Part shown: positions 3,730 to 33,472 of the stretch, one piece after another
Numbering within the stretch: position 1 is the stretch's first letter
Layout: each line of letters begins with the position of its first letter
DNA from: an uncultured Spirochaetia bacterium
GTDB taxonomy: Bacteria > Spirochaetota > UBA12135 > COTS27 > CAZFAK01
Assembly (NCBI GenBank): GCA_964517045.1
Contig: CAZFAK010000002.1
Span: 1-33,564, forward strand
Length of the DNA: 33,564 nucleotides
Direction: 5' to 3'
Made by a program: the position numbers and the translations under genes
Notes under the pieces: generated by a model
The model's input: the letters and a program-made list of their open reading frames with translations, nothing else
What the model was told of the DNA's origin: nothing
Database searches by the model: none

Positions 3730-5043
3730 ATGCGTTTTAAATTTTTGTTATTATCTGTTTTAATATTTTTTTCAATACCGGCTGCAGCTGAGACAAACAG
3801 GGACGCTGTTAGCAGCAATGAACTGCCTGCCGGTGATCCTTTTGGCGAGGCTGAGGCTATCATAAGCAGCAGCAGCAATGCTGAAGATACAATCGGGGAA
3901 AAAGCAGATACTGTCAGCTCTGATATACTGAGCGGATATCTGGAAAGCAGGGCTCTGTTGCTACACTCTGCTCCTAAGCAGGAGTGGCTTTTTCAAAACG
4001 CTAATAAACTCAAGTTAAAACTGGATAAAAGTTTTAACAGAATAAATTTTCACAGTGAGATCAATTTTTCCTACTATGCCGGTCATACCCGGTTATGCTT
4101 ACTGGAATATCTGCCGCAGAAACAGGTAAAAGCATTAAGTAATTTGTTTGGTACTAATTTTTCTGCAGACGTATATAACTATAATTATAATAACCGGATA
4201 ACGGTTTTCCGCGCTTACGGAGTTATTACCCTGCCCCGGGTCAGTTTTTTTATCGGCCGGCAGCCGGTCACCTGCGGTACCGGTTATGTCTGGAACCCGG
4301 TAGATCCTGTAAATAAAAAAGATATGCTGGATCCGGATTATGAACTGCCGCCTCTGGATGCTTTAAGAGTAATGCTGCCCCTGCCGGCAGTTAAAGGTGA
4401 ACTGAACTGTGCATACGGTTTTCGTAATAATTTTAAGGATGGAGAGTTTCTGGCTTTTATCCGGGCCCATGCCTGGCTGGACTGGCATCTTGTTTATGCT
4501 TATTATAACTATCATAAAACTGATTTTTTAACCGGCCTTACTACTTCCGGTAAAAGATCGCTCATCGGCGCTGCTTTTGCCGGTCAGGCGGGAGAGGTGG
4601 GAATACATGGAGAGGCAGCTTATCATACCGGCATTAAAAAAAAAGCAACAGCTTATTTTTCCTGGCTGGCCGGCTTTGATTATACTTTTACTTTTCAAAA
4701 CCGGATTATGGCAGAGTTTTACCGCAATGATTCCGGCAGCAAAAACTCACAGCAGTATACGCTGCAAAGCTGGCTCTCCTATATAAACATGGAACAGGGC
4801 TGTCTTGGTAAAAACTATCTTTATTTATCTTCCACTCAGATCCTGTTTGATATTACAGAGCTTTCTCTTAGCGCTTTAATCAATCTCAGTGACAGTTCCT
4901 ACTGTCTGATGCCGCAATATAAAATAATGGCCCTGGACCAGCTTGATATACTGTTGCGCTGTATGATAATGGACGGCAGCAAGGGCAGTGAATTTGCAGC
5001 TGTAAACGAAAGCGGTGAATTGAGAATTAATTTTTATTTTTAG
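3730..5043 (+). CDS. Predicted outer-membrane beta-barrel protein (437 aa), family unknown
   Basis: Signal peptide MRFKFLLLSVLIFFSIPAAAE, followed by an acidic Ser-rich linker and then an aromatic-rich sequence with alternating hydrophobicity. The C-terminus ends ...ELRINFYF; a terminal aromatic residue is the usual OMP/BAM signature. The gene starts 14 nt after the LolA-like gene. Confidence 0.5.
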   Translation: MRFKFLLLSVLIFFSIPAAAETNRDAVSSNELPAGDPFGEAEAIISSSSNAEDTIGEKADTVSSDILSGYLESRALLLHSAPKQEWLFQNANKLKLKLDKSFNRINFHSEINFSYYAGHTRLCLLEYLPQKQVKALSNLFGTNFSADVYNYNYNNRITVFRAYGVITLPRVSFFIGRQPVTCGTGYVWNPVDPVNKKDMLDPDYELPPLDALRVMLPLPAVKGELNCAYGFRNNFKDGEFLAFIRAHAWLDWHLVYAYYNYHKTDFLTGLTTSGKRSLIGAAFAGQAGEVGIHGEAAYHTGIKKKATAYFSWLAGFDYTFTFQNRIMAEFYRNDSGSKNSQQYTLQSWLSYINMEQGCLGKNYLYLSSTQILFDITELSLSALINLSDSSYCLMPQYKIMALDQLDILLRCMIMDGSKGSEFAAVNESGELRINFYF

Positions 5044-5681: not shown

Positions 5682-7136
5682 GTTCAGCAGTTGACAATAC
5701 TTATCCAGCTGTGTAAATATCAGGAACTCGTCTCTTACCCGGCGTCTTGCTTTTTGGGCCATGGCTTCCATTTGGTCAGGGTTGGAGAGAGTTTGATTAA
5801 TAGTTGCTGCTACATCTTCAGAGTCGCCCGGGCTCTGGATCATGGCTGCTTCCCGGCCGGCAGTTACCTGTTGCCGCAGTCCGCAGGCATTACTTACTAT
5901 CACCGGTGTGCCTTTCCACATAGGTTCAGTAGCGGTCAGTCCGAATCCTTCCTGAATAGAGTTTTGAACTACGGCTGTGGCGCATGTATGCAGAGCGCTT
6001 ACCATTAACGCATTTTCCTCCCGGGAAGTCATGGGCAGACTTAACAAGATAATATCTTTTTGTAAATCCGCATGTAGTTCACAATATTTTTTACTAAGTA
6101 TCTGCAAAACTTCCTGTGCTTCCGGGTCATCCTTAACTGCAGCTGTTTCCGGCCCGGCCATTACCAGCCGCAGCTGTTGTAATCGTTTTTTATGTTCTCC
6201 CGGTTTGTCTTCAGCATAAGCATTAATGTTTTGTTTTAATTTAATGAAGGCTTCCATAAGCTCCTGCCAGCCTTTAAGGTTGTCCCAGCGCGATACCTGT
6301 AAAATAAAAGGGTGGCTAAGTAAACCGATGTCTTGGGGTAGGGTTGCCGTTTTAAAAGTATTATCACTTTGCAGCCGTTCAGCCTGGTGTTGATACGTGT
6401 TAACTGCAAGCTGCTGCGGTTTGACAGCCAGACCAGAGGCGTATAAAATACTGGTAAGCCGTGGTATGCGCAGTTCCCTGTTTTTGGCTGTAAAAGGATC
6501 AAGTGCAGGGTGGATAATGACGCTGCGGTCTTTGAGATAGGAGGGTATATATTCCGGAGCTGTAAAAACTGCCTGGTCATAGTTTTGCAGATATGGTTTC
6601 ATAAAATTCCATATGGTGGTAGTCTGTTCCGTTTTTTTATCCAGTCCTATATGACAGCGGAATATGGTTTTAACACCGGTAATATCTTTAAGTCTGGAAC
6701 CCATACCTGCCGGTTGCGGGTCATGGATAACAACTATATCATCCGTTTGGACCAGTTTTTTCATGTCTTGCACAAGTTCAGTACTTACATTTTCGTAGAG
6801 ATCAAAATCAGCTTTACTTAATTCCGGCCGCCCGCTGCCGTGAAAAAGATTGTGCATGCGTTTGGTTAAATTGAAAAAAGCGGTTTGTTCTGTGCTTATT
6901 ACTGCCCACCTTGCTGTAATGCCGGCTTCCCGCAGCATAAAGATCATACGGGGCAGCATTTCTGCCACTCCTCCGCCTTCAGCAGTGGAATTGACCATCC
7001 AGACAGTATGTTTTTTAAGATTGGAAGCAGTTTTGTCTAATATTTTTTTTAATTTTTCCACGACACCGGTTAGATAAACCGAATCAGCGTATTCTTCCAG
7101 GCGGGTTCCGGGTGTAACAGTTACTTCTTTAATCAT
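5664..7136 (-). CDS. treT: TreT-type trehalose synthase (GT4 glycosyltransferase)
   Basis: A string of motifs matches archaeal/bacterial TreT as I remember it: VNSTAEGGGVAEML, FFNLTKRMHN, HDPQPAG, FRCHIGLD, VSRWDNLKG and SIQEGFGLTATEPMWKGTPVI. GGAG lies directly next to the TTG at 7142, so ATG 7136 (6-nt spacing) is the likelier start. Confidence 0.7.
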   Translation of the reverse strand: MIKEVTVTPGTRLEEYADSVYLTGVVEKLKKILDKTASNLKKHTVWMVNSTAEGGGVAEMLPRMIFMLREAGITARWAVISTEQTAFFNLTKRMHNLFHGSGRPELSKADFDLYENVSTELVQDMKKLVQTDDIVVIHDPQPAGMGSRLKDITGVKTIFRCHIGLDKKTEQTTTIWNFMKPYLQNYDQAVFTAPEYIPSYLKDRSVIIHPALDPFTAKNRELRIPRLTSILYASGLAVKPQQLAVNTYQHQAERLQSDNTFKTATLPQDIGLLSHPFILQVSRWDNLKGWQELMEAFIKLKQNINAYAEDKPGEHKKRLQQLRLVMAGPETAAVKDDPEAQEVLQILSKKYCELHADLQKDIILLSLPMTSREENALMVSALHTCATAVVQNSIQEGFGLTATEPMWKGTPVIVSNACGLRQQVTAGREAAMIQSPGDSEDVAATINQTLSNPDQMEAMAQKARRRVRDEFLIFTQLDKYCQLLNRLVKK

Positions 7137-7316
7137 AATCAACTCCTTTCCGGGTTAATTATAACATATATAGAGTTATTAGCTGAAGCCTTGCGGTTTT
7201 CTTTTAAAGCCCGAAAGCTCCGGCCGGACTTGGTTTCAAAGATATTGTGTAAACCGGCACGTAAAGCTGAAGTTGACATAGGGTAATATGCTAAAGTAAA
7301 TATACAACGGCTATTC

Positions 7317-8591
7317 TTAAAAAATAATATTATACAGAAAATAAAGCAGAAAAACCCAGACAAGCATAACCGTTTCCGGGGCCAGGAGCCGGTAGATACT
7401 CTCCAGCAGGTCGGTTTTAAAATATTTGTTGGTTACAACCAGGCAGATATGTACAGGGGAGAGTATCATTCCAATGTAACCCACGCCATAGGCCAGTATT
7501 ACGGTAGCGTACAACTGTCCTGCTGTAACATCTGAAGGTAATAAATTCATTACGACCGGAAAACTGGTGCCTACAAAACCAATAGCAATGCCGGAAGTAA
7601 AACCGCTGATAAAAGGCAGCAGCATAATGATAGCTAAAACAGGTATATGCCAGGTATTCAATTCCGCACTTATTTTGTCCATAAAAGCTATGCCGCCGGG
7701 AAGTTCGGCTTCGATAAAGGCGCCGTAAATCCTGATAAATAAAACTACAGTTGCCAGGTTATAAAGTTTTTTATTTGTTATTATCTTTTTCCAGTCAGAT
7801 AAGGATAAGGCCCGGGAGTATTGTAAGTATAGCTGGGCAGTACTCACCCCGATTATTACAGGAAGATATTTGCTGAAAGCAGTCAGGGCCGGGAATAAAA
7901 GTTTTATAATGGCGTAAACCGCTATTATAATAATAACCGGCATTAGCGGTTTGAGCAGAACATGAAAACTGATAGTTTCCTCAGACCGGTCTTCTGCTGC
8001 CGGTACACGGCGCAGAAAAAAAACCGCACCGACTATTACAGTCATTAAAGTCAGGGGAAAATTTATAAGCATAAGATGCGTAAGGGGGATTTCGCTTATT
8101 TCAGCGGCCAGCAGAATGCCGGGGTACAGGGGCCACCAGTATTCCCAGATGTGACGAAACCAGTAGTTAATTTTAGTTTTGAGCATGGGCGGAATTTTAT
8201 TATTTTTATCTGTTTTGTCTATAAGCGGAGCTGAAAAAACGGCTCCGCCGGGCATAGGCAACAGACCGACAGCAGCGGGCAGTACTGCCATGGTTGTGCG
8301 TCGGGAAAATTTTTTACTGAAATTTTCCACCAGTTGTTTCATTATACCGCTAAAAGACATTTGGGAACTTAAAATAATTATTTGTAAAACTATTATGAGC
8401 AGCATTATATTATTGATTGAGAAAGCCCGGTCCGCAGATATTTGCCAAATAGCAGCAGGCGTGTGGCCTGACCATATAGATAATACGATTGTGCCGATGA
8501 TAACCGCTATGGTTAGTTGTTTTAATATTCGGTTAAAAAAAAGAATGAGAAATAAAGAAATAAGCAGTCGTGCCAGAAAAGGAAATTCCAT
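7317..8591 (-). CDS. Polytopic inner-membrane protein, possible DUF401 / ion-transporter-superfamily permease (424 aa)
   Basis: About 10-12 hydrophobic helices and no soluble domain. AGGTGA lies 6 nt before the ATG, and the gene starts 7 nt after the obg stop, making it the last gene of that operon. The family assignment is from memory of general layout only. Confidence 0.5.
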   Translation of the reverse strand: MEFPFLARLLISLFLILFFNRILKQLTIAVIIGTIVLSIWSGHTPAAIWQISADRAFSINNIMLLIIVLQIIILSSQMSFSGIMKQLVENFSKKFSRRTTMAVLPAAVGLLPMPGGAVFSAPLIDKTDKNNKIPPMLKTKINYWFRHIWEYWWPLYPGILLAAEISEIPLTHLMLINFPLTLMTVIVGAVFFLRRVPAAEDRSEETISFHVLLKPLMPVIIIIAVYAIIKLLFPALTAFSKYLPVIIGVSTAQLYLQYSRALSLSDWKKIITNKKLYNLATVVLFIRIYGAFIEAELPGGIAFMDKISAELNTWHIPVLAIIMLLPFISGFTSGIAIGFVGTSFPVVMNLLPSDVTAGQLYATVILAYGVGYIGMILSPVHICLVVTNKYFKTDLLESIYRLLAPETVMLVWVFLLYFLYNIIF

Positions 8592-9949: not shown

Positions 9950-11056
9950 TTATTTACTTTTTTGTTTTATTACTGATTCACCGCCCTGAAAGTTAAACAG
10001 GAGTATGCTTATATAGCGGCAGAACGCTTCCCGCAGCTGTTTACTGCTGCTGAGTGAAGCAGGCAGGTCAGGTATAAAAAGATATATATCATCTTTTATA
10101 TCTTTCATTTTAAAACTGTAAATAGTTTTAACTGCCAGCCGCTTCCCGGCCAGAACATCTTTATAGTATTCCAGCTCTTTATCTTTAATGAAACCGGCGG
10201 CCGGCAATGTGCTTTTTATAGTAAAATCAGGACTCCGGGGCAGGTCCTTATAACCTACATAAACCAGGAAAGCCGCTTTTTTTTTTGTTTTTTTTACCAG
10301 CATACAGCCTTTGATTGATTGTTCTTTCAGAAAGGACAGAAGGGTTTGCTGGTCAGGACTCAGGCCCGTGATAAAGGTTGTGACAAGTCTGCTTAGTAAA
10401 CGGTTCTGTTTTTCTTTGTCTTTCTTCTGCTCCAGTATTTTTTTCTGGTTTTCAAGTATATTAAAATGTTCAGCGATAATACCAAGTATGATATTTAAAA
10501 AGGAAAAATCAGTCTGGTTTTGCAGATCGTTGCTGTTTTTACAACCGGCGATAATAAAACCGGTTGTTTTTTTATTTTTTTCTATGGGGAAAAATACCGG
10601 TTTATTTAATTTAGGCGCCAGCCTGGCAAAAGAATCTAAAATATTACTGTTATAATTTTTATTTTTAAAAGCTTCGTTTATTATTTTTTTATTTTTGGCA
10701 GTTATTTTTATAACGCCAGGTTTTATTTTAAGTTTTTTTTTATAAACAGCAGCAGCTTCCCGGGCTGCCGGGTTATAACGTGCGATTATAATGTAATTAA
10801 ATTTAAAAAAATTAAGTAAAGTGTTACTGATCAGTTCAAAATTTTTTTTTAAATCTCTATGTAATTCCAGGCTGTTGCATAAATTTTCCAGTTTTTGGGA
10901 TATATGGGTTATCTTTTCTTTCTGTTTTTGATAGTTTACAAAATCTTCAGAATTGAGAGCAAGCAGACTTTTAAAATCTTTAGCGGCTATTCCTTTATAA
11001 TTTCTTTTAATAAATTCCTTTAACAGATAATCCCTGGATTTATTATGCAGTCCCAT
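9950..11056 (-). CDS. Lys-rich 368-aa hypothetical protein, two-lobed, no recognisable catalytic motif
   Basis: This is a long ORF whose start codon is coupled to the upstream stop (TAAAATG at 11054-11060). It has two alpha/beta-looking halves separated by a KKDKEKQ-rich coiled linker. The halves might be GAF-like, but I cannot verify that. Confidence 0.6.
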   Translation of the reverse strand: MGLHNKSRDYLLKEFIKRNYKGIAAKDFKSLLALNSEDFVNYQKQKEKITHISQKLENLCNSLELHRDLKKNFELISNTLLNFFKFNYIIIARYNPAAREAAAVYKKKLKIKPGVIKITAKNKKIINEAFKNKNYNSNILDSFARLAPKLNKPVFFPIEKNKKTTGFIIAGCKNSNDLQNQTDFSFLNIILGIIAEHFNILENQKKILEQKKDKEKQNRLLSRLVTTFITGLSPDQQTLLSFLKEQSIKGCMLVKKTKKKAAFLVYVGYKDLPRSPDFTIKSTLPAAGFIKDKELEYYKDVLAGKRLAVKTIYSFKMKDIKDDIYLFIPDLPASLSSSKQLREAFCRYISILLFNFQGGESVIKQKSK

Positions 11057-11057
11057 T

Positions 11058-12614
11058 TTAGCGTCCCAGACGATTGATTACGGAGATATATTTATCATAG
11101 TATTTTGATTCTGCAAATTCTTTTATTTTATCTTCCGGCAGGTATTCCAGCAGAGAATCAAAATAAGCAAAGACTTCTGCTATCTCTGCATCGCCCACCG
11201 GTTTTTTCAGAGATTTACTTTTAGCTGGTTTGGCACCAGCTTTTTTTTTCGAAGCAGAGTCTGCAGCAGTCGGTTCAGGTTGCTTTGTTTGCCGGGTGCC
11301 GCTCGTATCGCTTTCTTTCTCCGCAGCCGGTTTCCCCTGCGGGGCGTCAGTATCAGTATCCTCATCTGACACTTTTTTCATATCTACCTTGGCAGAGCGG
11401 AGCAGTTCTGCTTCAAAATCTTCAGTGTCCTGAATAACAGAATCATCAGATTCAGCAGCAGTTTGCGGCTGTTCCGGTTTTTTTTCTATTTCTTTTTCTG
11501 CTTCCGGTGCATTTTCCTGATCAGGGCTTAAATCAACTTCCTGGGCAGATTCCAGGTCTTTGGTAATATTATCAAGTTCATCATTGGAGAGAGTTACTGA
11601 TTCAGATTCGTCATCAGCCAGGTTTAAATCAGCATCAGGAGTAGTGTCGGTTTGTTCCCTGTTTTCTTCAATATCGTCCCCCTGCAGATCCACGACCTGG
11701 GATTCATCCACATCAGATAGAATATTATCCATTTCTTTTTCGTTAAGGGCCACAATATCCTGATCATCATCCTGCGGTTTGTCAGCGGCTTGTTCCTTCT
11801 CAGGCGCGGGCACTGCTGGCGAATCTTCTCCGGACTTTGCAGCCGGCTGCTCTTCGGTTTCCCCGGCTGTTTCCGGCTCTTCCGTCCGGGCAGCAGTAGT
11901 TTCTTTCTTTTTGGTGTCCGGCTCCGGCTCGGTATGTTTTTCCTTGTCCTGAGAATCTGCAGTGCCGCCGCTTTCCTCTTCTTCACCGATAGAGGGCAGT
12001 CCTTCCAGTTCGTCAAGATTGTCAGCCATGTTGGAGATATCCCCTCCCTCCATATTGTCTACCTTGACATCATTGATATCAATCTCATTTTCCTCCAGGC
12101 TGCTGCTGTCCGTATCCCCGGCTGCTTCATTCAGGTCTATATCAGGAACATCCTCCAGATTATCATCCGTATCATCTTCTTTGTTTTCATTTGTTGCTGT
12201 TTCAGCTTCACTGAGATCAGGTACGTTTTCACTTAGATCAGCCATATCAGCGGCATCATTATTTTTATCCTGACTCTCCCGGGAATCTGTATCAAACTCC
12301 AGATCGGAATCACTCAGATCAGGCAAGTCAGAAGTATCGATATCACTGCTTTCGTTTTCATCAGTAACATTGTCATCCGGAGCTGTTTGAGCAGGTGCAG
12401 AGCCGCTGCTGTCACTGCCGGTACTATCTGTTTCCGGCTCGCTTGCTGTATCTGTTTCATCTGCAGCAGGTGCAGCAGGTTTTATCTCTTCCCCTTCCGC
12501 TGCTTCGGAAATGTCAGCATTATCCATAATGCTGCTTAATTCATCATCGGAAAGGCTTACCTCTTCCAGATCTTCTTCATTGTTAGTATTAGTGCTTTCT
12601 TCCTTTTCAGCCAT
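11058..12614 (-). CDS. Hyper-acidic, largely disordered 518-aa protein with a structured C-terminal domain
   Basis: The ORF is dominated by D/E/S/T. It contains three copies of a V-x-L-[SN]-x-[DK]-E-[LM]-[DS]-[NS]-I motif. A basic patch (SKKKAGAKPAKSKSLKK) precedes a non-low-complexity tail (EVFAYFDSLLEYLPEDKIKEFAESKYYDKYISVINRLGR). AGGAAC lies about 10 nt before the ATG. Confidence 0.7.
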   Translation of the reverse strand: MAEKEESTNTNNEEDLEEVSLSDDELSSIMDNADISEAAEGEEIKPAAPAADETDTASEPETDSTGSDSSGSAPAQTAPDDNVTDENESSDIDTSDLPDLSDSDLEFDTDSRESQDKNNDAADMADLSENVPDLSEAETATNENKEDDTDDNLEDVPDIDLNEAAGDTDSSSLEENEIDINDVKVDNMEGGDISNMADNLDELEGLPSIGEEEESGGTADSQDKEKHTEPEPDTKKKETTAARTEEPETAGETEEQPAAKSGEDSPAVPAPEKEQAADKPQDDDQDIVALNEKEMDNILSDVDESQVVDLQGDDIEENREQTDTTPDADLNLADDESESVTLSNDELDNITKDLESAQEVDLSPDQENAPEAEKEIEKKPEQPQTAAESDDSVIQDTEDFEAELLRSAKVDMKKVSDEDTDTDAPQGKPAAEKESDTSGTRQTKQPEPTAADSASKKKAGAKPAKSKSLKKPVGDAEIAEVFAYFDSLLEYLPEDKIKEFAESKYYDKYISVINRLGR

Positions 12615-16832: not shown

Positions 16833-17633
16833 ATGGTTGGAAAATTACCGGCACTTTTTTTTTGTCTGTTATTAGGTTTAACATATTCTTTATCAGCAAA
16901 AAAAAACAGTATTGGCCGGATCAAGTTATCTGTTTTTCAAAGTAACAGCAAACATAAAAAATTTATCAGCCCAAACCGTCTCAGCCTGCTGGTATACCTT
17001 GATCTTTTTATACCCCTAAAAGCTTATAAATATATGTCTGCTGACGAACGCCGGCTTATCACCAAAAATATTATTAACACTGCCCTTAATGGTAAAAATA
17101 TTGAATTTCATATCAATAATTATTATAAGCAGCAGCCGCTTATTATGTTTTCCAAATATTTGGAAAAGAAAAATGGATATTATATACTTTTTGCTGCAAA
17201 TTATGATATACAGTCCAATTTTTTTACCAGTAATTTTGTAAAAAATTCTTTTGCTAAAATATATATAATAAGCAATAAACTTCCTGTAGCCCGAAAATAT
17301 CTGGTTAGTCAAAACTACTGCCGCCTGTTGCGCAGGAGTGATCGTTACCGGGAACTGGCAGATATCTATCTTTTTGATGCAGATAAAGCAAACGACTCTG
17401 CAGTCAGCAGGCTTTTGTGCAGGGGCAGGTGGCGCAGTGATACAACCGCTGAGGAGATTGCCCTGCTGTGTACAGAGATCCAGTATTATGTTTTATATAA
17501 TGATCCTGACGAAGTTGAAGACCTTGGTGAAGAGCTTGAAGAGTATTTTTCAGAAGACCAGGGACTTAAAGATTTTTTAAGCGGCTGCCGGGAGGCTTCC
17601 CGTTTAATTAAAAGTTTTGTTTACGAAGATTAA
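16833..17633 (+). CDS. Secreted hypothetical protein (266 aa)
   Basis: Signal peptide MVGKLPALFFCLLLGLTYSLSA. The body is AT-rich and Asn/Lys/Tyr-rich, with an acidic C-terminus. It overlaps the next ORF by 17 nt. Confidence 0.55.
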   Translation: MVGKLPALFFCLLLGLTYSLSAKKNSIGRIKLSVFQSNSKHKKFISPNRLSLLVYLDLFIPLKAYKYMSADERRLITKNIINTALNGKNIEFHINNYYKQQPLIMFSKYLEKKNGYYILFAANYDIQSNFFTSNFVKNSFAKIYIISNKLPVARKYLVSQNYCRLLRRSDRYRELADIYLFDADKANDSAVSRLLCRGRWRSDTTAEEIALLCTEIQYYVLYNDPDEVEDLGEELEEYFSEDQGLKDFLSGCREASRLIKSFVYED

Positions 17634-22151: not shown

Positions 22152-25019
22152 TTGTCTAAAACCAATTATTTTGAAATTATAAAAGAAAACAGCGACCGGG
22201 TTTTCCAGATTGACCGGGAGTGTTACCTTTTATATCTTGGTTCAACTTTTTTTGAAAAAGCTCCCTATCTTCTGATAGGCTCATCTCCTGAGATCCCCCC
22301 TGTCTTTAAAAAGCAGATAGGTTTTATAGTACTTACCGGTAGTGCTTTCGGTTCTGTCTATGAACTGGAACAGTGCCTTACTAAAGGCCATTTTCCCTGT
22401 TTGATCGGTACTGATGATCTTTTTGATACTTTTTTTTCCGTAATTAACACCGGAAAATTTCCCGAAGAGAAATTTAAAAAAATTTTTGTCAAATACAGCC
22501 GGAAAGCACAAAGCTTTACCACTGAACTGCAGTTTGAGCAGTATCTTAACAGTTTGCAGAAGACTGTTAAAAATACAGATGTAGCAGAGGATAAAAATAA
22601 AACCAAGTTTAAACATGCTCCCAGTGAAAAAGCCGTAGATATTTCCAGGAAGATTACAGTTACTTTTAACCGCAAAGGTAATCTGTTTATAATGATAGAC
22701 GGAGAAACTATTTTCGATCTTAAGTTAAGAGCGTCTGACGGATTAACCAATAATAATTTCTTTGATCATCTTATTAGCCGGTTTATTTATCGTAACCGCC
22801 ATTTTTTCCGGGGCAGCGGTTTTATCATGCTTGATACTGAACTGGCCTATTATGATTACAACCGTGTATTCTTAAGCGGATTACCTTCTGATTATTTCCG
22901 CGAGCTTATAAAGGGTAATGTTGATCCGGATAATATTACTTATTTGTTTTCTAATAAGGGAAAAAGCAATTTTGAAAATTTTATAAAACGTCAGATTGTA
23001 ACTGGTGGTACGGCAAAGATATTTACGGAAAAATTTTCCGCTTTGAAACCGGTTATTGATTTTTACAAACCGATAGATATAAAAACTGAAAATGTTACGC
23101 AGAATAAAATTGATTTTTCAACTACCAGTGTGCAGCTCAAAACTGAAAACAGGCAGGTGCAGATCTATAATATCGATGCAGAAACCTATATAGATTATTT
23201 TTACGGCAAGCATGGCAAAACAAAACTTGAATCCGATATAAATATTATTCCTGCTGCTATGTCCTCCAGAATAAAAACAGCTCAGGGTATGATTAACCTG
23301 GTTTACGAAAAAGGTTCCAATAGATTTAACAGTAAGTTTAAGGGTTCTCCTGATCTTTATAAAATGTTTCCCTATATTGATTATCGTATTAACAAACTTT
23401 ATAAGTTTGAACAGCGTGTTTACTATGCTCTTGATATATATGTGAAAGATATTTTATATGATTATCCCAGGAGTATCAGACGCTGTTTTGTTAATTTCAG
23501 CAGGCAGGTGTATGATCTGCTTGATTTTTATATTCAGCGTGATCCGGCCTTTAAAAAGACTTTAAAAAAAGTATTGACCTTTTCCCGCTATCTGCTGCCT
23601 CCGAACAACCGTTATGAATATTTCATACTGCATAATACAACTGAGTTTTTATGCTACCTCGATGACCTGCTTAAAGCAAGGGCAGTACTGCGTCTTAAGA
23701 TAGTGGATAAAATTATTAACGATCTTCAGCAGTTACGCAATCATGGAGCTAATGTTGAAGTTTCGGACATGAACTATAAGGGTGATATAACTGTTTTCCC
23801 CAATGAGCGCCTTTATCTTTTTTATACTACGGTGGACGCCCTTGATGATGAGGCGCTGCCGCGTCAGCATGAGAGGTTGTTACAAAAAAACATCGAGACC
23901 GGTCCGGCGGTTATACAAAACGATAATCAACGCTTAAACCGCCAGATAACAAAATTTTCCAATGTAAAAGGCAACCGGCATCTGGTTTCCCGTTGGCAGG
24001 AGGAGGGCCGGGAGGCGGCGGATTATTTATTGGCAGACCAGCAGTACTTTAGCGAAGAGTTATACCGGTTGCACAATATAAATAATTTTTGCAATTTTTT
24101 CCGAAATCTGCCTGCTGCAGAGCAGAAAAAATTCTGTTTTATGATTAAAACAGTGCAGGGAGGGCTGAATGAATTTGAGAAAGACGAGCAGCTGTTTGGA
24201 GACCTGCTTGAAGATTTTTCCTTTAAATCCGTTAAAAAGAAAAAATTTAAAACCGGTACTGGTCTGTTTAAAAACAGGTTTAAATTTGCAATTTCATCTG
24301 TTATCATGATATTCTTACTAATGTTGAGTTTTATCAACATCAGTTCTTTGACATTTAGTAAACCTGTAAAAAAATTCAGACAGCATATTATTACCAATAA
24401 TATCGGCAGGGTATTTTTTATCAAGCCTTATTTCAGGAAGTTAATCAGCCGCTATTCCTATCTTTATAAAGAGGAGTTGCCGGAGATTACACCTTTATAT
24501 TATCTTAAGGATATAAATACTAACGGCAACCGGATAACTACCAACCTGGTAGTTAATGATAAATTATTTAACCGTACCCTGTATATATCTTATGAGGATT
24601 TTAACAGGCACTTCAGGGATGTTTTAAAATTAAATACCTTTGCTGACGAGGATTTAATATATCCTGGTGATCTGGTGCAGATAAACGATGCTGCATACTA
24701 TAAGATAAAAGAGCTGGATACGCTTTGGGGTATTACTTTTCGGAAACTGTATGATAAACAAAAAGAAATTTTAGCTGAACTGGCCCGCATTGAACTTGTT
24801 ATTATTTATTATGAAAAAGTTATAAAAGAAAAAACGGCAAATACTAAGCTGATGCATTATAAACGTAAACTTGATATTATTAATAAAAAGATAAAAACGA
24901 TTTCTGACCTGACTGATATCAGACAGGTTAAGAATTATGCTGAAAAACTTCAGTGTAAAATAATACAGATAAATAAACTATTAGAAAATAAGGAGTTAAA
25001 TGATGGCTGTAAGAGGTAA
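22152..25019 (+). CDS. 955-aa orphan protein with a single TM helix near aa 712-733
   Basis: TTG is the only possible start, because an in-frame TAA lies at 22140-22142. The N-terminal part of about 710 aa has no motif I recognise and is preceded on the membrane side by a KKKKFK...KNRFK patch. The TM helix is FAISSVIMIFLLMLSFINISSL (24285-24350). The C-terminal part of about 220 aa ends in a coiled coil. The ORF overlaps the next gene by 20 nt. Confidence 0.75.
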   Translation: MSKTNYFEIIKENSDRVFQIDRECYLLYLGSTFFEKAPYLLIGSSPEIPPVFKKQIGFIVLTGSAFGSVYELEQCLTKGHFPCLIGTDDLFDTFFSVINTGKFPEEKFKKIFVKYSRKAQSFTTELQFEQYLNSLQKTVKNTDVAEDKNKTKFKHAPSEKAVDISRKITVTFNRKGNLFIMIDGETIFDLKLRASDGLTNNNFFDHLISRFIYRNRHFFRGSGFIMLDTELAYYDYNRVFLSGLPSDYFRELIKGNVDPDNITYLFSNKGKSNFENFIKRQIVTGGTAKIFTEKFSALKPVIDFYKPIDIKTENVTQNKIDFSTTSVQLKTENRQVQIYNIDAETYIDYFYGKHGKTKLESDINIIPAAMSSRIKTAQGMINLVYEKGSNRFNSKFKGSPDLYKMFPYIDYRINKLYKFEQRVYYALDIYVKDILYDYPRSIRRCFVNFSRQVYDLLDFYIQRDPAFKKTLKKVLTFSRYLLPPNNRYEYFILHNTTEFLCYLDDLLKARAVLRLKIVDKIINDLQQLRNHGANVEVSDMNYKGDITVFPNERLYLFYTTVDALDDEALPRQHERLLQKNIETGPAVIQNDNQRLNRQITKFSNVKGNRHLVSRWQEEGREAADYLLADQQYFSEELYRLHNINNFCNFFRNLPAAEQKKFCFMIKTVQGGLNEFEKDEQLFGDLLEDFSFKSVKKKKFKTGTGLFKNRFKFAISSVIMIFLLMLSFINISSLTFSKPVKKFRQHIITNNIGRVFFIKPYFRKLISRYSYLYKEELPEITPLYYLKDINTNGNRITTNLVVNDKLFNRTLYISYEDFNRHFRDVLKLNTFADEDLIYPGDLVQINDAAYYKIKELDTLWGITFRKLYDKQKEILAELARIELVIIYYEKVIKEKTANTKLMHYKRKLDIINKKIKTISDLTDIRQVKNYAEKLQCKIIQINKLLENKELNDGCKR

Positions 25020-26994
25020 AAAAAGTCCGAATATTTTTCATCCGGTCAAACACAGTGCTGTTGCTTCTAAAAATTCTTTAGCCCAGGAAGGTCGCGACCA
25101 GAATCTGGAGTTTAAAAGAACGATAGATGACAGTACAAAAAAGATCGTGGATGATGCTTTGCATAAATTGCCCAAAGAGGCGCTTGAAAAACTGGATGTT
25201 ATGTCCGGTGTCAAGGAAAAACTTTATAACTATGTCAACCAGGGATTCAGTAATATGCTGTCCCGTTATCTTACTACTGCTGAAGATGAGATGGGCAAAA
25301 AATTCCGTGACTTTGTTGATAAGGAAGAAAACAGGCTTGCCAATAAATATTCACCGCGTGAATTAAGTGAACTTATTGACCAGATAGCAGGTCCGGACCG
25401 TTTCAATAACGGTGAGGTTGAAAAATCAATCATAAATACTTACGGACATTTACATGGTCACATCAACCGTGAAATAACCGAGATGGAGCAGAACACCAAT
25501 TCTCTGTTACGACAGAAAACAGATGTTGGTGCTTTTGTACGCGGGCAGAATTTTTATTCTGTTGTTAAATGCGCTTTTAAAGACGACAAAAACAAACCCA
25601 AGACAGTTATGAATGTCAAACTGTCTATCAATATTCTGGAGAATGAACTTATTTCTCCTATCTATCATTATCAAACCACTGTGGAACAGATAGCCAAAGA
25701 TATAATAATGAAACAGATACAGGATAAACTGGAAAAAACTATTGAAGATATCAACAACAAACTGCTTGAGGAAGGTAAAGCTGAACTGCAGCACGGAGAA
25801 ATCATCCTGAAAAAGATGCATAATGTGGAAAACTATACTGCGGATGAACGTGATGATGAGCAGTCCAAGCGTTATTCCATGATAGCCAAGCATCTGCTGG
25901 AAAGGCTGGAAGGTCTTGGCGCTGAAATTAATCCCAAAGATTATGACGCGCTTAACATCAGGGAAAATATTAAAAAAATTATAGACGATGACAATATCAG
26001 AAACAGAGGTTTTAATACAGCCATTAACTGTCTGACCAGTATTCTGGATACCAGTAAACTGGGTTATCAGTTCTGTGAAAATTTTAAAAACACCCGTGAA
26101 TTTGAAATAAGAGAATATGAAGACACGGATGAGGATCAGCTGCCGGATGAACGCTATCAGATCAATATGAAATATTATAACCAGGCCCAGGTTATGTCTG
26201 AACGGCGCGCTTATGATCAGCAGGTCGCTGAATATAAAAAAGAATGCAAGCTGGTATCTGATATGGTAGAGTGTCTGGTGAAGAATAACAAAAAAGCCTT
26301 TCAGCTCAACGATTTTGAGGATCTGGTTAAAAAAACAGTGGGATGCCGTAAGAAAGAGATCCGGGAAGGTGAAACTCTTTACGAAGATTCACCCAAATTG
26401 TGGGGTATTACCCAGCGTTTCAATGAAGAAAAAAGGGATATCCGTCCGGAAGAGACAAATGTGGAAAAGGCCAACCGTACTTATTCGGTTGATAAAAAAG
26501 ACATCAAAAACCTTCTGGATATGAGTCAGAAAAAACTGGCTGATACATATTCGTTTCAGCATCCGCAGAAACGGATTTTACTTGATGACCGTATCCGTTT
26601 CCTGAAAAGAAAATTTGAGGAATTTGATTACCGTATCAATCCCTATCATGTTCAGCCCGGGCTGCTGCTTGATATAGATATCTCCACAACCAAACGTAAA
26701 AGGTTCATTATGGGTAACATGGCTAATGTACTTAATGAATTTTTATCAGCTATGTCCAAGGGCTTTGAAGATGCTGCTTTCGCAGAATTTTCACGCCGCC
26801 GCAGTACTACCAGGGATGATCTGGATCAGGTATATGTCAGTGATCTGCCTGCTGAGGAACAGAATGCACAGGATGCTGAAGCTGAATCCGGGCAAGGCGG
26901 AGCCGGTACGGAAACCAATCTTGAAGATGAGGTATCAAGTGATTCAGATTCTTCCGGATCAGGTGATAGTGACGGCGGTTTGGACGAACTGTAA
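25000..26994 (+). CDS. 664-aa highly charged, helix-rich orphan protein; candidate CfpA-like cytoplasmic filament protein
   Basis: AGGAG (24991-24995) precedes ATGATG, so the start is 25000 or 25003. There is no TM helix, signal peptide or NTPase motif. The sequence has long charged helical stretches and an acidic tail ([23 protein letters not shown]). The size (~76 kDa) and position close to ppdK match what I recall for Treponema cfpA. No sequence comparison was done. Confidence 0.7.
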   Translation: [664 protein letters not shown]

Positions 26995-27014
26995 AAACAA
27001 TAGCGGTTTTCGTA

Positions 27015-27956
27015 ATGAGTGTTACTGCTGAAAGTTATTTGGACTATAGTTCGTTCGGAACCCGTAATGCTTTTAATGAAGCAATAAGGTTTTTTAAGAC
27101 TGTTACTGCGATATCAGGCAGTCTTAAAAACCAAAACCTCTCAGACATCATTTGGGATCTGCTGCAGGAGGAAAAAATCGGACCGCAGCAGGTCCCCTCT
27201 GTTTACAGTACTTTGCTCATTGACAAACTGGGATACAGTGCTAAAAGCATCAATTTTTTAACAGAGGTTGCTCTGAAAAAAGATATATGCTCGGATATTA
27301 AGGACTGGACCAGTATTGATCTTAATTGTATATATTACTCAGCCACCGGTTATCCGATGGTATTTAACCCTAAAAATAAAAAGCATATTAATGAGATATC
27401 CAAATTTAACAAGGATTTTCATTTTGTTGTTTATGCCAGGGACCTGGCGGATAATAATACAGAAGTGAGTAAAGCTGCCTGTGAAGATTTCTTAAAAATT
27501 TTACTGGGCAAACCGGTGAAAAACGTTGCTGCTTATACAAAAAAGATTGCCCGCTCTGTACCTGCCGGAGGCGGAACAGCTTCCAAACAAAAGATCAAAA
27601 AGCAGGCGGCTGTTAAACCGAAGAATATGCTTCGAACTGATAAGCTGGGGGTTGTAGTTTCCAATGAGCTTTTTCATAACGGCAATGTTGAGGCCTGGAC
27701 CAGAATTATAAAGAGTTATAGTGCTAAATATCCTGATAACCAGGTAAAAGTGTTCTATGACGGTGAACTAATCAAAAAACTGGCAGCTTTGTTTGAATGG
27801 GGAAAGGTAAAAAGCGGTACTCGCATCTTTTTTCAGGTTGAAGGCCCTGTACTGAAAGATATAGTAAAACTTAAAAACTATCTTTATGAAGGAGCCTCGG
27901 AAAGATTTGAGAATTTCTTACGCGGACCTGCTCATAAAACACTAAAACTTTTTTAG
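27015..27956 (+). CDS. 313-aa orphan cytoplasmic protein
   Basis: It starts 20 nt after the preceding stop. It has two globular-looking halves joined by a basic linker (GGGTASKQKIKKQAAVKPK). I recognise no motifs. Confidence 0.65.
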   Translation: MSVTAESYLDYSSFGTRNAFNEAIRFFKTVTAISGSLKNQNLSDIIWDLLQEEKIGPQQVPSVYSTLLIDKLGYSAKSINFLTEVALKKDICSDIKDWTSIDLNCIYYSATGYPMVFNPKNKKHINEISKFNKDFHFVVYARDLADNNTEVSKAACEDFLKILLGKPVKNVAAYTKKIARSVPAGGGTASKQKIKKQAAVKPKNMLRTDKLGVVVSNELFHNGNVEAWTRIIKSYSAKYPDNQVKVFYDGELIKKLAALFEWGKVKSGTRIFFQVEGPVLKDIVKLKNYLYEGASERFENFLRGPAHKTLKLF

Positions 27957-31654: not shown

Positions 31655-33472
31655 ATGAAACCGTTTAAAAACAGTATTACTCTTATATTTACACTTTTTA
31701 TAATAGCTTTCAGCCTGACCGCTTGCAAGCAGGATGGAGACAGCCGCGTTGATCCGGGCAACAGTTCCGACCCCCTTTCATCTGCCGGCTTTTCCATAAC
31801 CTCCGGCTCGTCCGGTCCGTCCGGAAATCTCTATCCGCCGGGCACTCCTGTTATTGACGAGCCTTTTACCGGTTGGAATCCCTCTGCAGGCAGTCTGTGG
31901 GAAGCCTCCTCCCTGGGAAGTAATTCAAGCTGGAATGCTGCCGCGGGCCGGCTGCATATAAACGGCAATGACCAGACCATGCTTGGCAACATCGAGCTGG
32001 CTGCAGATAATACTGCGGGAACAGGTATTTACGAAATAAGTTCGGTCACGGGAACACACACTACCGGTGAGTGGAATATCCGTCTGAAATTTTATGTGGG
32101 AGCAGATCCTTCTACTTACGGTTTCATAGAAGTCAACCATCTCGCCGGCGGCGATACTGTGATACGCTCTACTTTCCCCGGTACGGGCTGGAGCAATTCG
32201 GAAAACAGGCTTACTCTAACCCCGGGAATGAATATCAAACTAAAGGTGGAGCGCTATGCTGACGGTAATATGTCTGTTTTCGGCTGGAATTCGGACATCG
32301 GCAGCTGGCATACTGTAGTGGACAGTGAAATGTTTGACAGCCGTAAGACCTATATGCAGTTGTATTTGACCCCGGGAACCTTTTCCGATACCAGAGAGGT
32401 GGCTATTGACCGGGTCACTACCTGGGGCACTACCGGTACTGCAGTTAGTTCCGCCCAGAGTATCGCCTCTTCGGGCAGCAGCCTTTCCGCCGGCATCTCT
32501 ACCAACCTCTCCTACAAAGTCCATCTTTTCTACTACCAGTGGTATGGTACCCTCACCCATGACAGCGCCTGGCGTCATTGGCAGCAGAATGTGGGTACAG
32601 GCGGTCTGCCGGATAGTATCGGCGCAGATCTGTACCCTGCCCTTGGCCTTTACAGTTGTAAGGATGATAATCTGCTGGATCAGCATATGCAGATGATTGC
32701 TTCGGCCCGCATTGGTGTAATTGTTGTCTCCTGGTGGGGTCAGGGCAGTTGGGAGGATCAGATTGTTCCCCAGATACTTGCTGCTGCTGCTCCTTACGGT
32801 ATCAAGGTAGCCTGGCATATGGAACCGTACGGCGGTCGTACAGCTGCCAGCACAGTAAATGATATTAACTATATTAATAATAATTACGGCGCGCATCCGG
32901 CTTTTTTCCGGGCCGCAGACCGCGGTAATCAGCCGGTATTTTATATCTGGAATAGCCTGGCAATCAGCGACTGGTCTGCCCTGACTGCAGTTAACCAGTC
33001 CAATATTATACTGGCCCAGCATACGGATCAAAGTAAGGCTGATTATTTCGGCGGAATGTTTAACTATTCGATTCCTTTTGCGAGTAAGAGCGATGCTGAG
33101 ATACAAAGCATCTGGAACAGCATGAATACTTTCTGTAATAATAACAACATGGTCTGGTCTCCTTCCATTATTCCTGGTTATAAAGATGCCCGCGCTACGG
33201 GCAATACAGGTTTTTGTGACCGGGACAACGGCAATACTTATGACAAGTACTGGAATATGGCTGTTAATTGCGGCGCGTCATGGATATCGATTACCTCTTT
33301 TAACGAATGGCATGAGGGAACAGTGATTGAACCTGCAGAACATAATCCGCCTGCCGGTTACGGTTATCTTGATTATGAGGGTGTTTACGGTAAGACCGGA
33401 GAGGAATCCGAAACTGCTTATCTGGAACGTACTGCAGAACTGATCCTGGGATGGGATCCTGCGCTGCAATAG
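31655..33472 (+). CDS. Lipoprotein with C-terminal GH99-family (endo-alpha-mannosidase/mannanase-like) domain
   Basis: Lipobox L-T-A-C (FSLTACKQ). From about aa 285 the sequence carries GH99 hallmarks: HLFYYQWYG, LYPALGLYSCKDDNLLDQHMQMIASARIGVIVVSWWG, KVAWHMEPY, AHPAFFR, PVFYIWNS and the catalytic-region motif SFNEWHEGTVIEP. The N-terminal ~260 aa form a separate beta-rich domain, joined through a Ser-rich linker. Confidence 0.8.
   Translation: MKPFKNSITLIFTLFIIAFSLTACKQDGDSRVDPGNSSDPLSSAGFSITSGSSGPSGNLYPPGTPVIDEPFTGWNPSAGSLWEASSLGSNSSWNAAAGRLHINGNDQTMLGNIELAADNTAGTGIYEISSVTGTHTTGEWNIRLKFYVGADPSTYGFIEVNHLAGGDTVIRSTFPGTGWSNSENRLTLTPGMNIKLKVERYADGNMSVFGWNSDIGSWHTVVDSEMFDSRKTYMQLYLTPGTFSDTREVAIDRVTTWGTTGTAVSSAQSIASSGSSLSAGISTNLSYKVHLFYYQWYGTLTHDSAWRHWQQNVGTGGLPDSIGADLYPALGLYSCKDDNLLDQHMQMIASARIGVIVVSWWGQGSWEDQIVPQILAAAAPYGIKVAWHMEPYGGRTAASTVNDINYINNNYGAHPAFFRAADRGNQPVFYIWNSLAISDWSALTAVNQSNIILAQHTDQSKADYFGGMFNYSIPFASKSDAEIQSIWNSMNTFCNNNNMVWSPSIIPGYKDARATGNTGFCDRDNGNTYDKYWNMAVNCGASWISITSFNEWHEGTVIEPAEHNPPAGYGYLDYEGVYGKTGEESETAYLERTAELILGWDPALQ

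Follow-up and report, generated by a model that had tools for sequence, protein, structure and literature searches.

The cfpA locus of an uncultured spirochaete unites a filament gene, a conserved TP_0747/PPDK-like gene pair and a clade-specific candidate anchor module

Ribbons of cytoplasmic filaments built from the protein CfpA have been known since the 1990s, and loss of CfpA leads to defects in cell division and in the nucleoid. To our knowledge, the components that bridge and anchor these ribbons have never been assigned to genes. Such "bridging and anchoring components" were seen by tomography (Izard et al. 2004, as cited in PMC13398306). In the annotation of Treponema pallidum, cfpA is TP0748 and a gene labelled 'Ppdk' (pyruvate phosphate dikinase, PPDK) is TP0746, both on the reverse strand; TDE0842-0844 of T. 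denticola are annotated in the same order, and those three genes were co-repressed in a microarray study (PMC3914990). TP_0747 of T. pallidum (37.8 kDa) is still recorded as hypothetical, without any domain match (PMC4403809 supplements), and supplements of the T. pallidum interactome held no entries for TP0746, TP0747 or TP0748. Here a cfpA locus is described from a 33,564-nt stretch of DNA, referred to in full as the window, of an uncultured Spirochaetia bacterium (contig CAZFAK010000002.1, assembly GCA_964517045.1). It encodes a 955-aa membrane protein (p955), the 664-aa CfpA, a 313-aa protein (p313) and a PPDK-like enzyme, preceded by a divergent gene for a MinD/ParA-like ATPase. CfpA and its neighbourhood in Treponema are already known, and the TP_0747 family is in Pfam. 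The locus of the window consists of three modules of differing evolutionary range: cfpA, the downstream p313/PPDK-like pair, and the upstream p955/ATPase genes.

The gene order was read from the list of open reading frames (ORFs), and positions refer to the whole stretch (Table 1). The p955 gene and cfpA overlap by 20 nt, cfpA and the p313 gene are separated by 20 nt, and the PPDK-like gene begins after a further gap of 34 nt. These coordinates agreed exactly with a preliminary description of the DNA, made from the sequence alone, which had reported three co-directional ORFs followed by a PPDK-family gene. An AAGGAG sequence within the p955 ORF, just ahead of the cfpA ATG, fits translational coupling of the two overlapping genes. 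Each of the three ORFs had homologues under selection (134 representative clusters for p955, 2705 clusters at the 90% level for CfpA and at least 342 clusters for p313) and each is therefore a real gene. The label 'orphan' given to them earlier did not hold, since p313 belongs to a family already in Pfam and p955 has its 134 representative clusters. Walker A, HExxH and HxHxD motifs were found in none of the three proteins; the preliminary description had likewise seen no Walker A or metal-protease motif.

The 664-aa protein scored 840 bits against the NCBIfam equivalog model NF040882 (cfpA_ASD; cutoff 500 bits, E 1e-252), with residues 8-612 aligned to model positions 4-603 of 605. Pfam PF27473 (CfpA_C) is precomputed for the same protein (P0124). 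On this sequence evidence it is CfpA, the subunit of the cytoplasmic filament ribbon, as the preliminary description had supposed; its charged character and acidic tail were likewise borne out (34% charged residues; aa 613-664 rich in D/E/S/G). A match to DUF5405, whose 21.6 bits just equalled the cutoff, was dismissed as spurious, and a sequence search of the PDB with the CfpA profile returned no solved CfpA structure. Relatives of CfpA fell into 2705 clusters, the nearest non-self member being 75% identical and the next about 60%. A scan of species-representative genomes gave at least 585 CfpA-encoding stretches, the best of which was only 57% identical, and the lineage of the window is thus without a close sequenced representative. 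We identify the locus as that of cfpA in a spirochaete that is uncultured and deep-branching.

Several observations on CfpA itself were made in passing. The extreme C-terminus carries a near-invariant L-x-E-L behind the variable acidic tail, and 90% or more of 19 diverse sequences share the terminal Leu; this could be a short docking motif. Solitary cfpA copies (683 aa), with no TP_0747 or PPDK-like genes, were present at two loci (L052 and L076), and two others (L025 and L040) came from the same metagenome-assembled genome (MAG; JAFGWI01), which holds a second cfpA copy. These second or solitary copies, unaccompanied by the TP_0747 and PPDK-like genes, suggest the existence of cfpA paralogues. 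In the MAG records of NCBI, many entries for CfpA bear the wrong name 'cytochrome C oxidase subunit II'.

Conservation of the gene order was examined in two samples. One comprised 80 cfpA-centred loci from species genomes (L001-L080), in which homologues were located by tblastn; the other comprised 80 p313-centred metagenome loci, drawn independently in order to separate the two linkages of p313. Among the cfpA-centred loci, a p313 homologue was the next gene after cfpA in 72/80 and the PPDK-like gene followed p313 in 68/80, the misses being mostly contig ends. Indeed, the closeness of cfpA and ppdK in Treponema, suggested in the preliminary description, is seen in TP0748/TP0746 and TDE0842-0844 and extends to these 68-72 of 80 genomes. 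MAGs labelled Chrysiogenales or Leptospirales retained the order VWA-cfpA-TP_0747-PPDK-like. Among the p313-centred loci, the PPDK-like gene lay directly downstream in all 59 that were testable, and cfpA lay directly upstream in 49 of 53. The four loci with p313 and the PPDK-like gene but no cfpA (L121, L136, L145 and L146) were metagenome contigs of two lineages and had no cfpA within 6 kb; the pair sat there in unrelated neighbourhoods, beside genes of Mur ligase/HisF-like or of Ig-like/TPR type. Thus p313 and the PPDK-like enzyme make up the most closely linked unit. As this linkage is closer than that of p313 to cfpA, the 'ppdK' gene is a member of a conserved module and not a bystander.

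The smaller member of this pair, p313, is the orthologue of T. pallidum TP_0747. PF27497 (TP_0747_N) is precomputed for p313 of the window (P0004), as it is for each of the 120 relatives listed, and the at least 342 clusters of the family extend across Spirochaetota; scans of the single p313 sequence with Pfam and NCBIfam gave nothing. The AlphaFold2 model of p313 had a mean predicted local distance difference test score (pLDDT) of 82.7, with low confidence confined to the linker and the first 9 residues. In this model an N-terminal alpha/beta domain (aa ~10-175) is joined through a disordered Ala/Pro/Lys linker (aa 181-201) to a C-terminal domain. In the family alignment the linker is variable and the C-terminal domain very conserved: N217-E226 (NELFHNGNVE), W262-V265 and G293-S295 were invariant in 69/69 sequences (the window and genome loci), and all are present in the window's p313. 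Several members of the family are misnamed 'ribosomal protein L12E/L44/L45/RPP1/RPP2' and one '3-methyladenine DNA glycosylase AlkD'. The Ala/Pro/Lys linker explains the spurious Ribosomal_60s matches and the 'ribosomal protein L12E/RPP1' names.

When the C-terminal domain of the model was compared with the PDB by Foldseek, the top matches were almost all HPr, the phosphocarrier of the phosphotransferase system (PTS), with probabilities of 0.9-0.96. Target-normalised TM-scores were 0.5-0.6 over about 90 columns spanning the whole of HPr, with weak E-values of 0.04-0.3. The predicted secondary structure, b1(211-214)-aA(223-238)-b2-b3-aB-b4-aC, has the order and spacing of HPr. The invariant His221 is placed 7 residues past b1 and 2 residues ahead of helix A, and would correspond to His15 of HPr, which lies 7 residues after b1 and 1 ahead of helix A. 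An hhalign comparison of p313 with an HPr profile, the latter built from five HPr/Crh sequences, gave a score of 24.8 (P 6.5e-4) with b2 to aC in the correct register. None of 200 column-shuffled HPr profiles reached this score (mean 10.6, sd 2.0, maximum 19.2), and the reversed HPr profile scored 10.7. A HMMER search of the PDB with the p313 profile found no HPr chain and nothing meaningful. The C-terminal domain is, in our reading, HPr-like in its predicted fold and stands outside the HPr family.

The larger member of the pair could be aligned collinearly over its full length with the PPDK of Clostridium symbiosum, scored 537 bits against TIGR01828 (below the cutoff of 843.45), and was matched in its C-terminal region by models of PTS Enzyme I. 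Pfam PPDK_N did not match the window's enzyme; in 7 relatives, including Treponema loci, it matched with 20-29 bits over about 50 of 328 model positions. The family was compared through 58 cfpA-linked homologues aligned to C. symbiosum PPDK. The swivel motif was conserved (GGFASH448APVVCR in the window, GGY[SA][AS]HA[SP]VVAR in the family), and the phosphoenolpyruvate (PEP)/pyruvate-site motifs RTEHMF, NPMLGHRGxR (NPMLGxRGxR), MIELP, GTNDLTQ and CGEHG were invariant or nearly so in 58/58. The ATP-grasp site had changed throughout. K22, R92, D321, E323 and Q335 of C. symbiosum are replaced in the family by R, I/E/V, Q/S/R, R (56/58) and D/E, respectively; R337 is kept in 34/58, and the Gly-rich loop is lost. 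The roles of these six residues in catalysis are presumed here from mutagenesis work on the C. symbiosum enzyme. The window's copy was the most degenerate of the 58, with L24, T88, K307, L309, D321 and Y323 at the six positions; posterior probabilities of the alignment to PPDK were high at 299-340 and weaker in the first ~200 residues. Mean column conservation was 0.58 in the N-domain and 0.70-0.73 in the other domains. The N-domain, being still moderately conserved, looks repurposed, not decayed. As judged from these alignments, the cfpA-linked 'PPDK' is not a canonical PPDK, and its ATP-grasp site has been remodelled family-wide.

Upstream of cfpA, p955 defined a fast-evolving family. A word-index search found almost nothing, single-sequence Pfam/NCBIfam scans gave no match and a sequence search of the PDB nothing meaningful, whereas exhaustive HMMER searching recovered the 134 representative clusters, mostly of 750-1000 aa and matched over the same conserved stretches. 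The AlphaFold2 model (pLDDT 77.3, predicted TM-score 0.67) comprises, in order, an alpha/beta domain, helical domains, a transmembrane (TM) helix, a disordered stretch, a LysM-like module and long helices to aa 952. The single TM helix (aa 708-727), a hydropathy peak shared by family members, agrees with the single-pass topology proposed previously. Seven K/R residues occur in the 20 residues ahead of it (KKKKFK...KNRFK), and no N-terminal signal peptide was found. A basic stretch before the helix, a peptidoglycan-binding module after it and no signal peptide make an N-in, C-out orientation likely. Conservation in the family peaks at aa 826-875, after the TM helix, with the LysM-like consensus ...DPDWIYPGNxFxLPDxxxYxVxxGDTxWxIA. 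Consistent with this, Pfam LysM (PF01476) matched 12/35 aligned members (best E 3.9e-6), and the family profile matched LysM chains in the PDB (E 1e-3 to 7e-2).

Residues ~15-340 of the p955 model resembled the metallo-beta-lactamase (MBL) fold: in the Foldseek search against the PDB nearly all of the top 50 matches were of this fold, the best ~20 with a probability of about 1.0, including 8gyg (E 5.5e-4), RNase Z/ELAC, GIM-1/IMP-1, Apyc1 and T. denticola ODP. The HxHxDH metal site was sought and not found: p955 has no HxHxD motif, and the only two columns of the family alignment with at least 40% His are unclustered. A fold of this kind with no metal site indicates that the N-domain is a pseudo-enzyme and not an active member. 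A degenerate VWA domain had been considered, given that VWA genes occupy this place elsewhere; the fold search decided for MBL. TP0749, which encodes a protein of only 8.6 kDa, was rejected as the p955 orthologue.

In about 26-27 of the 80 loci, among them that of the cultured Alkalispirochaeta alkalica DSM 8900 (L027), the gene immediately ahead of cfpA was a long ORF on the same strand with a single TM helix, and p955 was absent from those labelled Treponema, Sediminispirochaeta or Marispirochaeta. The divergent 427-aa protein shows the deviant Walker A motif GKGGVGKT and ends in a basic extension of about 90 aa, in agreement with the ParA-like ATPase of the preliminary description. Against NCBIfam minD models it scored 62-78 bits, below the cutoffs of 202-213, and it is thus a MinD/ParA superfamily member and not a MinD orthologue. 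Its gene was detected by tblastn in 19/80 cfpA loci, and 19/19 of these also had p955. The proposal of a single system comprising all of these genes therefore did not survive: the order from cfpA to the PPDK-like gene was kept, but the p955 and ParA-like genes were found at about one-third of cfpA loci and at none of the sampled Treponema loci. Of the outcomes that the preliminary description had named as refuting, none was obtained in full.

Where p955 is missing (L013, L021, L050 and others), the 0-6 kb upstream of cfpA held divergent VWA, DHH/DHHA1 and pallilysin-beta-barrel genes, for example L050:7667-9160 (-) and L021:8467-9864 (-), a neighbourhood of the TP0750 (VWA)/TP0751 type. The pallilysin-domain gene is conserved beside cfpA in environmental and termite-gut spirochaetes, which seems odd for a proposed host-specific virulence factor. 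At L050, a lineage that does not have p955, a gene for a SPOR-domain (septal peptidoglycan-binding) protein lies about 3 kb upstream of cfpA (6456-7568, +). ORFs of ~350-370 aa at L035 and L065 resemble this gene in size and position.

From the gene identities, domain architectures, conservation and synteny given above, we infer a model in which all of the physical contacts, and any phosphotransfer, are conditional. The TP_0747-family protein and the TP0746-type PPDK-like enzyme would act together. An HPr-like domain with an invariant His, next to an enzyme that has kept its PEP site and swivel His and whose nucleotide site is remodelled, points to docking or phosphate exchange: p313 would either dock on the His domain of the enzyme or exchange phosphate with it. 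The N-terminal domain and flexible linker of p313 may tie the activity of the pair to the CfpA ribbon. In the clade that possesses it, p955, probably translationally coupled to cfpA, would span the inner membrane with ~700 residues in the cytoplasm and tether the ribbon to membrane and peptidoglycan, and the MinD-like ATPase would position the ribbon. This arrangement would resemble a HubP/FimV-type hub of inverted topology. An assembly or anchoring role of p955 is plausible. Taken together, we favour with modest confidence a reading in which the known filament gene is accompanied on one side by an anchor module confined to a clade and on the other by a pair of phylum-wide occurrence similar to Enzyme I and HPr, with the accessory roles proposed above.

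The main competing explanation, which we consider rather unlikely, is that only cfpA is cytoskeletal and that its neighbours are functionally unrelated to it. The TP_0747-type protein and the PPDK-like enzyme would then be a metabolic pair (the terminal glycolytic step with an accessory subunit), placed behind cfpA on account of the high expression of both, and p955 with the MinD-like ATPase would be an independent envelope or division system. The occurrence of the p313/PPDK-like pair without cfpA in 4/53 loci, the solitary cfpA copies, and the PGK or GAPDH genes just past the PPDK-like gene in distant loci are all in keeping with such independence, as is the finding that most cfpA loci have neither p955 nor the MinD-like gene. 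However, the order cfpA-p313-PPDK-like is kept across lineages with only 50-57% CfpA identity, whose labels run from Treponema to Chrysiogenales- and Leptospirales-type MAGs, and an order so stable would be unusual in genes that are not functionally coupled. Furthermore, p955 overlaps cfpA by 20 nt and contains its ribosome-binding site, and the enzyme fails the PPDK equivalog test. The literature nevertheless takes TP0746 to be a working glycolytic, ATP-forming PPDK (PMC10013896, PMC8525777). The present data question that assumption and do not overturn it.

A second rival is a PTS-like phosphorelay, in which PEP would phosphorylate His448 of the PPDK-like enzyme in the role of Enzyme I, the phosphate would pass to His221 of p313, and the phosphorylation state would set assembly or function of the CfpA ribbon according to the PEP/pyruvate balance. 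We regard this as a tentative and rather improbable reading. Its attractions are the HPr-like fold and topology of p313 with an invariant His just before helix A, as is His15 in HPr; the hhalign score, above the maximum of all shuffled profiles; adjacency of the pair in 59/59 loci; and the homology of PPDK and Enzyme I as PEP-utilising enzymes, reflected in the Enzyme I matches to the C-terminal region. The nucleotide site, the normal phosphate acceptor, is moreover remodelled family-wide and most severely in the window's copy. On the other side, we know of no downstream acceptor and no CfpA phosphosite, and T. pallidum is thought to need the TP0746 enzyme for an ATP-yielding conversion of PEP to pyruvate. 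A PPDK homologue can become a regulatory His kinase, as VadK illustrates (PMC13400623). In its fullest version, the 'PPDK' beside cfpA in the sampled spirochaete genomes would be the Enzyme-I-like half of an unrecognised PEP:protein phosphorelay, taking the place of the nucleotide half-reaction, with an HPr-like TP_0747 partner, coupled genetically and perhaps physically to the CfpA ribbon and, in some lineages, joined by a MinD-positioned, LysM-anchored MBL-fold TM fastener; this too we consider doubtful.

Several results weigh against the favoured model as a whole as well as against the relay. The PTS-HPr model (PF00381) matched none of 52 TP_0747-family members even at E<=10, the Foldseek E-values of the HPr resemblance are weak (0.04 and above), and His221 is followed by N-G-N, with no equivalent of HPr Arg17. 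The remodelled ATP-grasp site retains basic and acidic residues (K22 changed to R, R337 in 34/58, Q335 changed to D/E), so that binding of nucleotide or PPi may persist. Co-expression may be all that the conserved adjacency to cfpA reflects. The window's own p955 falls below the LysM threshold (no match at E<=0.01). Finally, p955 and the MinD-like gene are missing from the sampled loci of Treponema, where filaments, bridges and anchors have been imaged, and they cannot be a universal anchor. It is very improbable that the cluster is instead a mobile, phage, secretion or defence element. Nothing was found in favour of this except a lone marginal PADLOC match (E 7e-4) to the P-loop of the MinD-like ATPase; PHROGs, PADLOC and the Pfam/NCBIfam secretion families were all negative for the three proteins, as the preliminary description would lead one to expect. 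The G+C content is uniform across the locus at 33-43% per kb, the surroundings are chromosomal (Obg, arginine biosynthesis, SDR), and the locus is conserved in the at least 585 CfpA-encoding stretches of the species-genome collection.

Table 1. Features of the cfpA locus, with positions in the 33,564-nt window
Feature	Positions	Strand	Basis
MinD/ParA-like ATPase gene, 427 aa	20606-21889	-	Pfam ParA/CbiA/AAA_31 matches, deviant Walker A
p955 gene, 955 aa, TTG start	22152-25019	+	ORF list
p955 N-terminal MBL-fold domain (predicted), aa ~15-340	22194-23171	+	Foldseek on AlphaFold2 model
p955 single TM helix (predicted), aa 708-727	24273-24332	+	AlphaFold2 helix, hydropathy
p955 LysM-like module, aa ~799-870	24546-24761	+	family consensus/profile
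AAGGAG Shine-Dalgarno of cfpA, within p955 3' end	24990-24995	+	sequence reading
cfpA, 664 aa, ATG start	25000-26994	+	NCBIfam NF040882
p313 gene (TP_0747 family), 313 aa	27015-27956	+	PF27497
p313 HPr-like domain (predicted), aa 205-313	27627-27953	+	AlphaFold2 and Foldseek; His221 codon 27675-27677
PPDK-like gene, 884 aa	27991-30645	+	C. symbiosum PPDK alignment; His448 codon 29332-29334

Outside the locus the window is typical chromosomal DNA, carrying MMPL/LolA-like genes, Obg, genes of arginine biosynthesis and those for an AraC regulator, an SDR and a GH99 lipoprotein. A scan of the locus for promoters and terminators gave counts near the shuffled expectation and was uninformative. This predicted lipoprotein of 605 aa, which has a glycoside hydrolase domain of the GH99 type, is encoded at 31655-33472. 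Over the last ~1.5 kb of the window G+C content rises to 0.51, compared with ~0.33-0.43 in the locus, and the region may be a horizontal acquisition. Four sizeable ORFs had no Pfam match: 9950-11056 (-, 368 aa), 11058-12614 (-, 518 aa), 3730-5043 (+, 437 aa) and 16833-17633 (+, 266 aa), at thresholds of E<=1e-5 (1e-4 for the 266-aa ORF).

The locus provides testable gene candidates for what anchors, bridges and regulates the CfpA ribbon. The TP_0747 family, still 'hypothetical' in the literature searched, is a phylum-wide candidate partner, and p955 with the MinD-like ATPase forms a clade-specific, LysM-anchored candidate pair that occurs in the cultured A. alkalica DSM 8900. In the same literature we did not find descriptions of an HPr-like fold or invariant His in the TP_0747 family, of its near-obligate pairing with a PPDK-like enzyme remodelled at the nucleotide site, or of the MBL-fold/TM/LysM protein that, together with a MinD-like partner, is specific to one clade. 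The findings also question the standing PPDK annotation in treponemes, for an enzyme assumed to be central to the energy metabolism of T. pallidum. Should the relay be true, PTS-type signalling would gain a new branch, pathogenic treponemes would offer a possible pair of drug targets, and PEP/pyruvate status would be linked to those aspects of division and nucleoid organisation that depend on the filament. Should it not, the locus would simply show the well-conserved surroundings of cfpA in one more, new lineage.

Among described loci, those of Treponema (TP0748-TP0747-TP0746 and TDE0842-0844) are the closest, sharing the series cfpA, TP_0747-family gene and PPDK-like enzyme of ~865-885 aa. 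The window's CfpA differs in being at most 57% identical to any copy in a species-representative genome, and among the 58 sequences compared the N-domain of its PPDK-like enzyme has degenerated furthest. The upstream sides also differ: the Treponema type has divergent VWA, pallilysin-domain and DHH genes and the tiny TP0749 (8.6 kDa), whereas the window has the 955-aa MBL-fold/TM/LysM protein and the MinD-like ATPase. With canonical PPDK (C. symbiosum, plant; TIGR01828) the enzyme family shares the catalytic His motif, the Cys of CGEHG and the PEP/pyruvate-site motifs; it departs from it in its sub-cutoff score, the absent or marginal PPDK_N, the replaced ATP-grasp residues and the lost Gly-rich loop. 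LysM-anchored hubs that recruit ParA/MinD-like ATPases are known as HubP, FimV and TsaP. Like them, p955 is predicted to be single-pass with a periplasmic LysM and a large cytoplasmic region, and it has a ParA/MinD-family ATPase as partner gene. Its topology would be inverted, however, with the N-terminus cytoplasmic and the LysM C-terminal; its cytoplasmic part appears to be an MBL-fold pseudo-enzyme with helical domains and not acidic repeats/TPR, and no sequence homology to these hubs was detected.

The pair resembles PTS Enzyme I/HPr (EI-Ntr/NPr) in that the gene of a PEP-utilising enzyme with a swivel His adjoins one for a predicted HPr-topology domain with an invariant His. Unlike Enzyme I, the enzyme has the architecture of PPDK, with a degenerate ATP-grasp N-domain and without the HPr-binding helical domain. 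Unlike HPr of the PTS, the p313 domain has neither a PTS-HPr match nor an Arg17 equivalent and is preceded by an unrelated domain of ~165 aa, to which a long linker joins it. VadK (Rv1127c) of Mycobacterium tuberculosis is reported to be a PPDK homologue turned regulatory histidine kinase (PMC13400623), and would be a precedent for the move of such an enzyme from central metabolism to regulatory phosphoryl transfer. VadK autophosphorylates as a kinase in that account; in the cfpA-linked enzyme it is instead the nucleotide site that is remodelled and the PEP domain that is kept.

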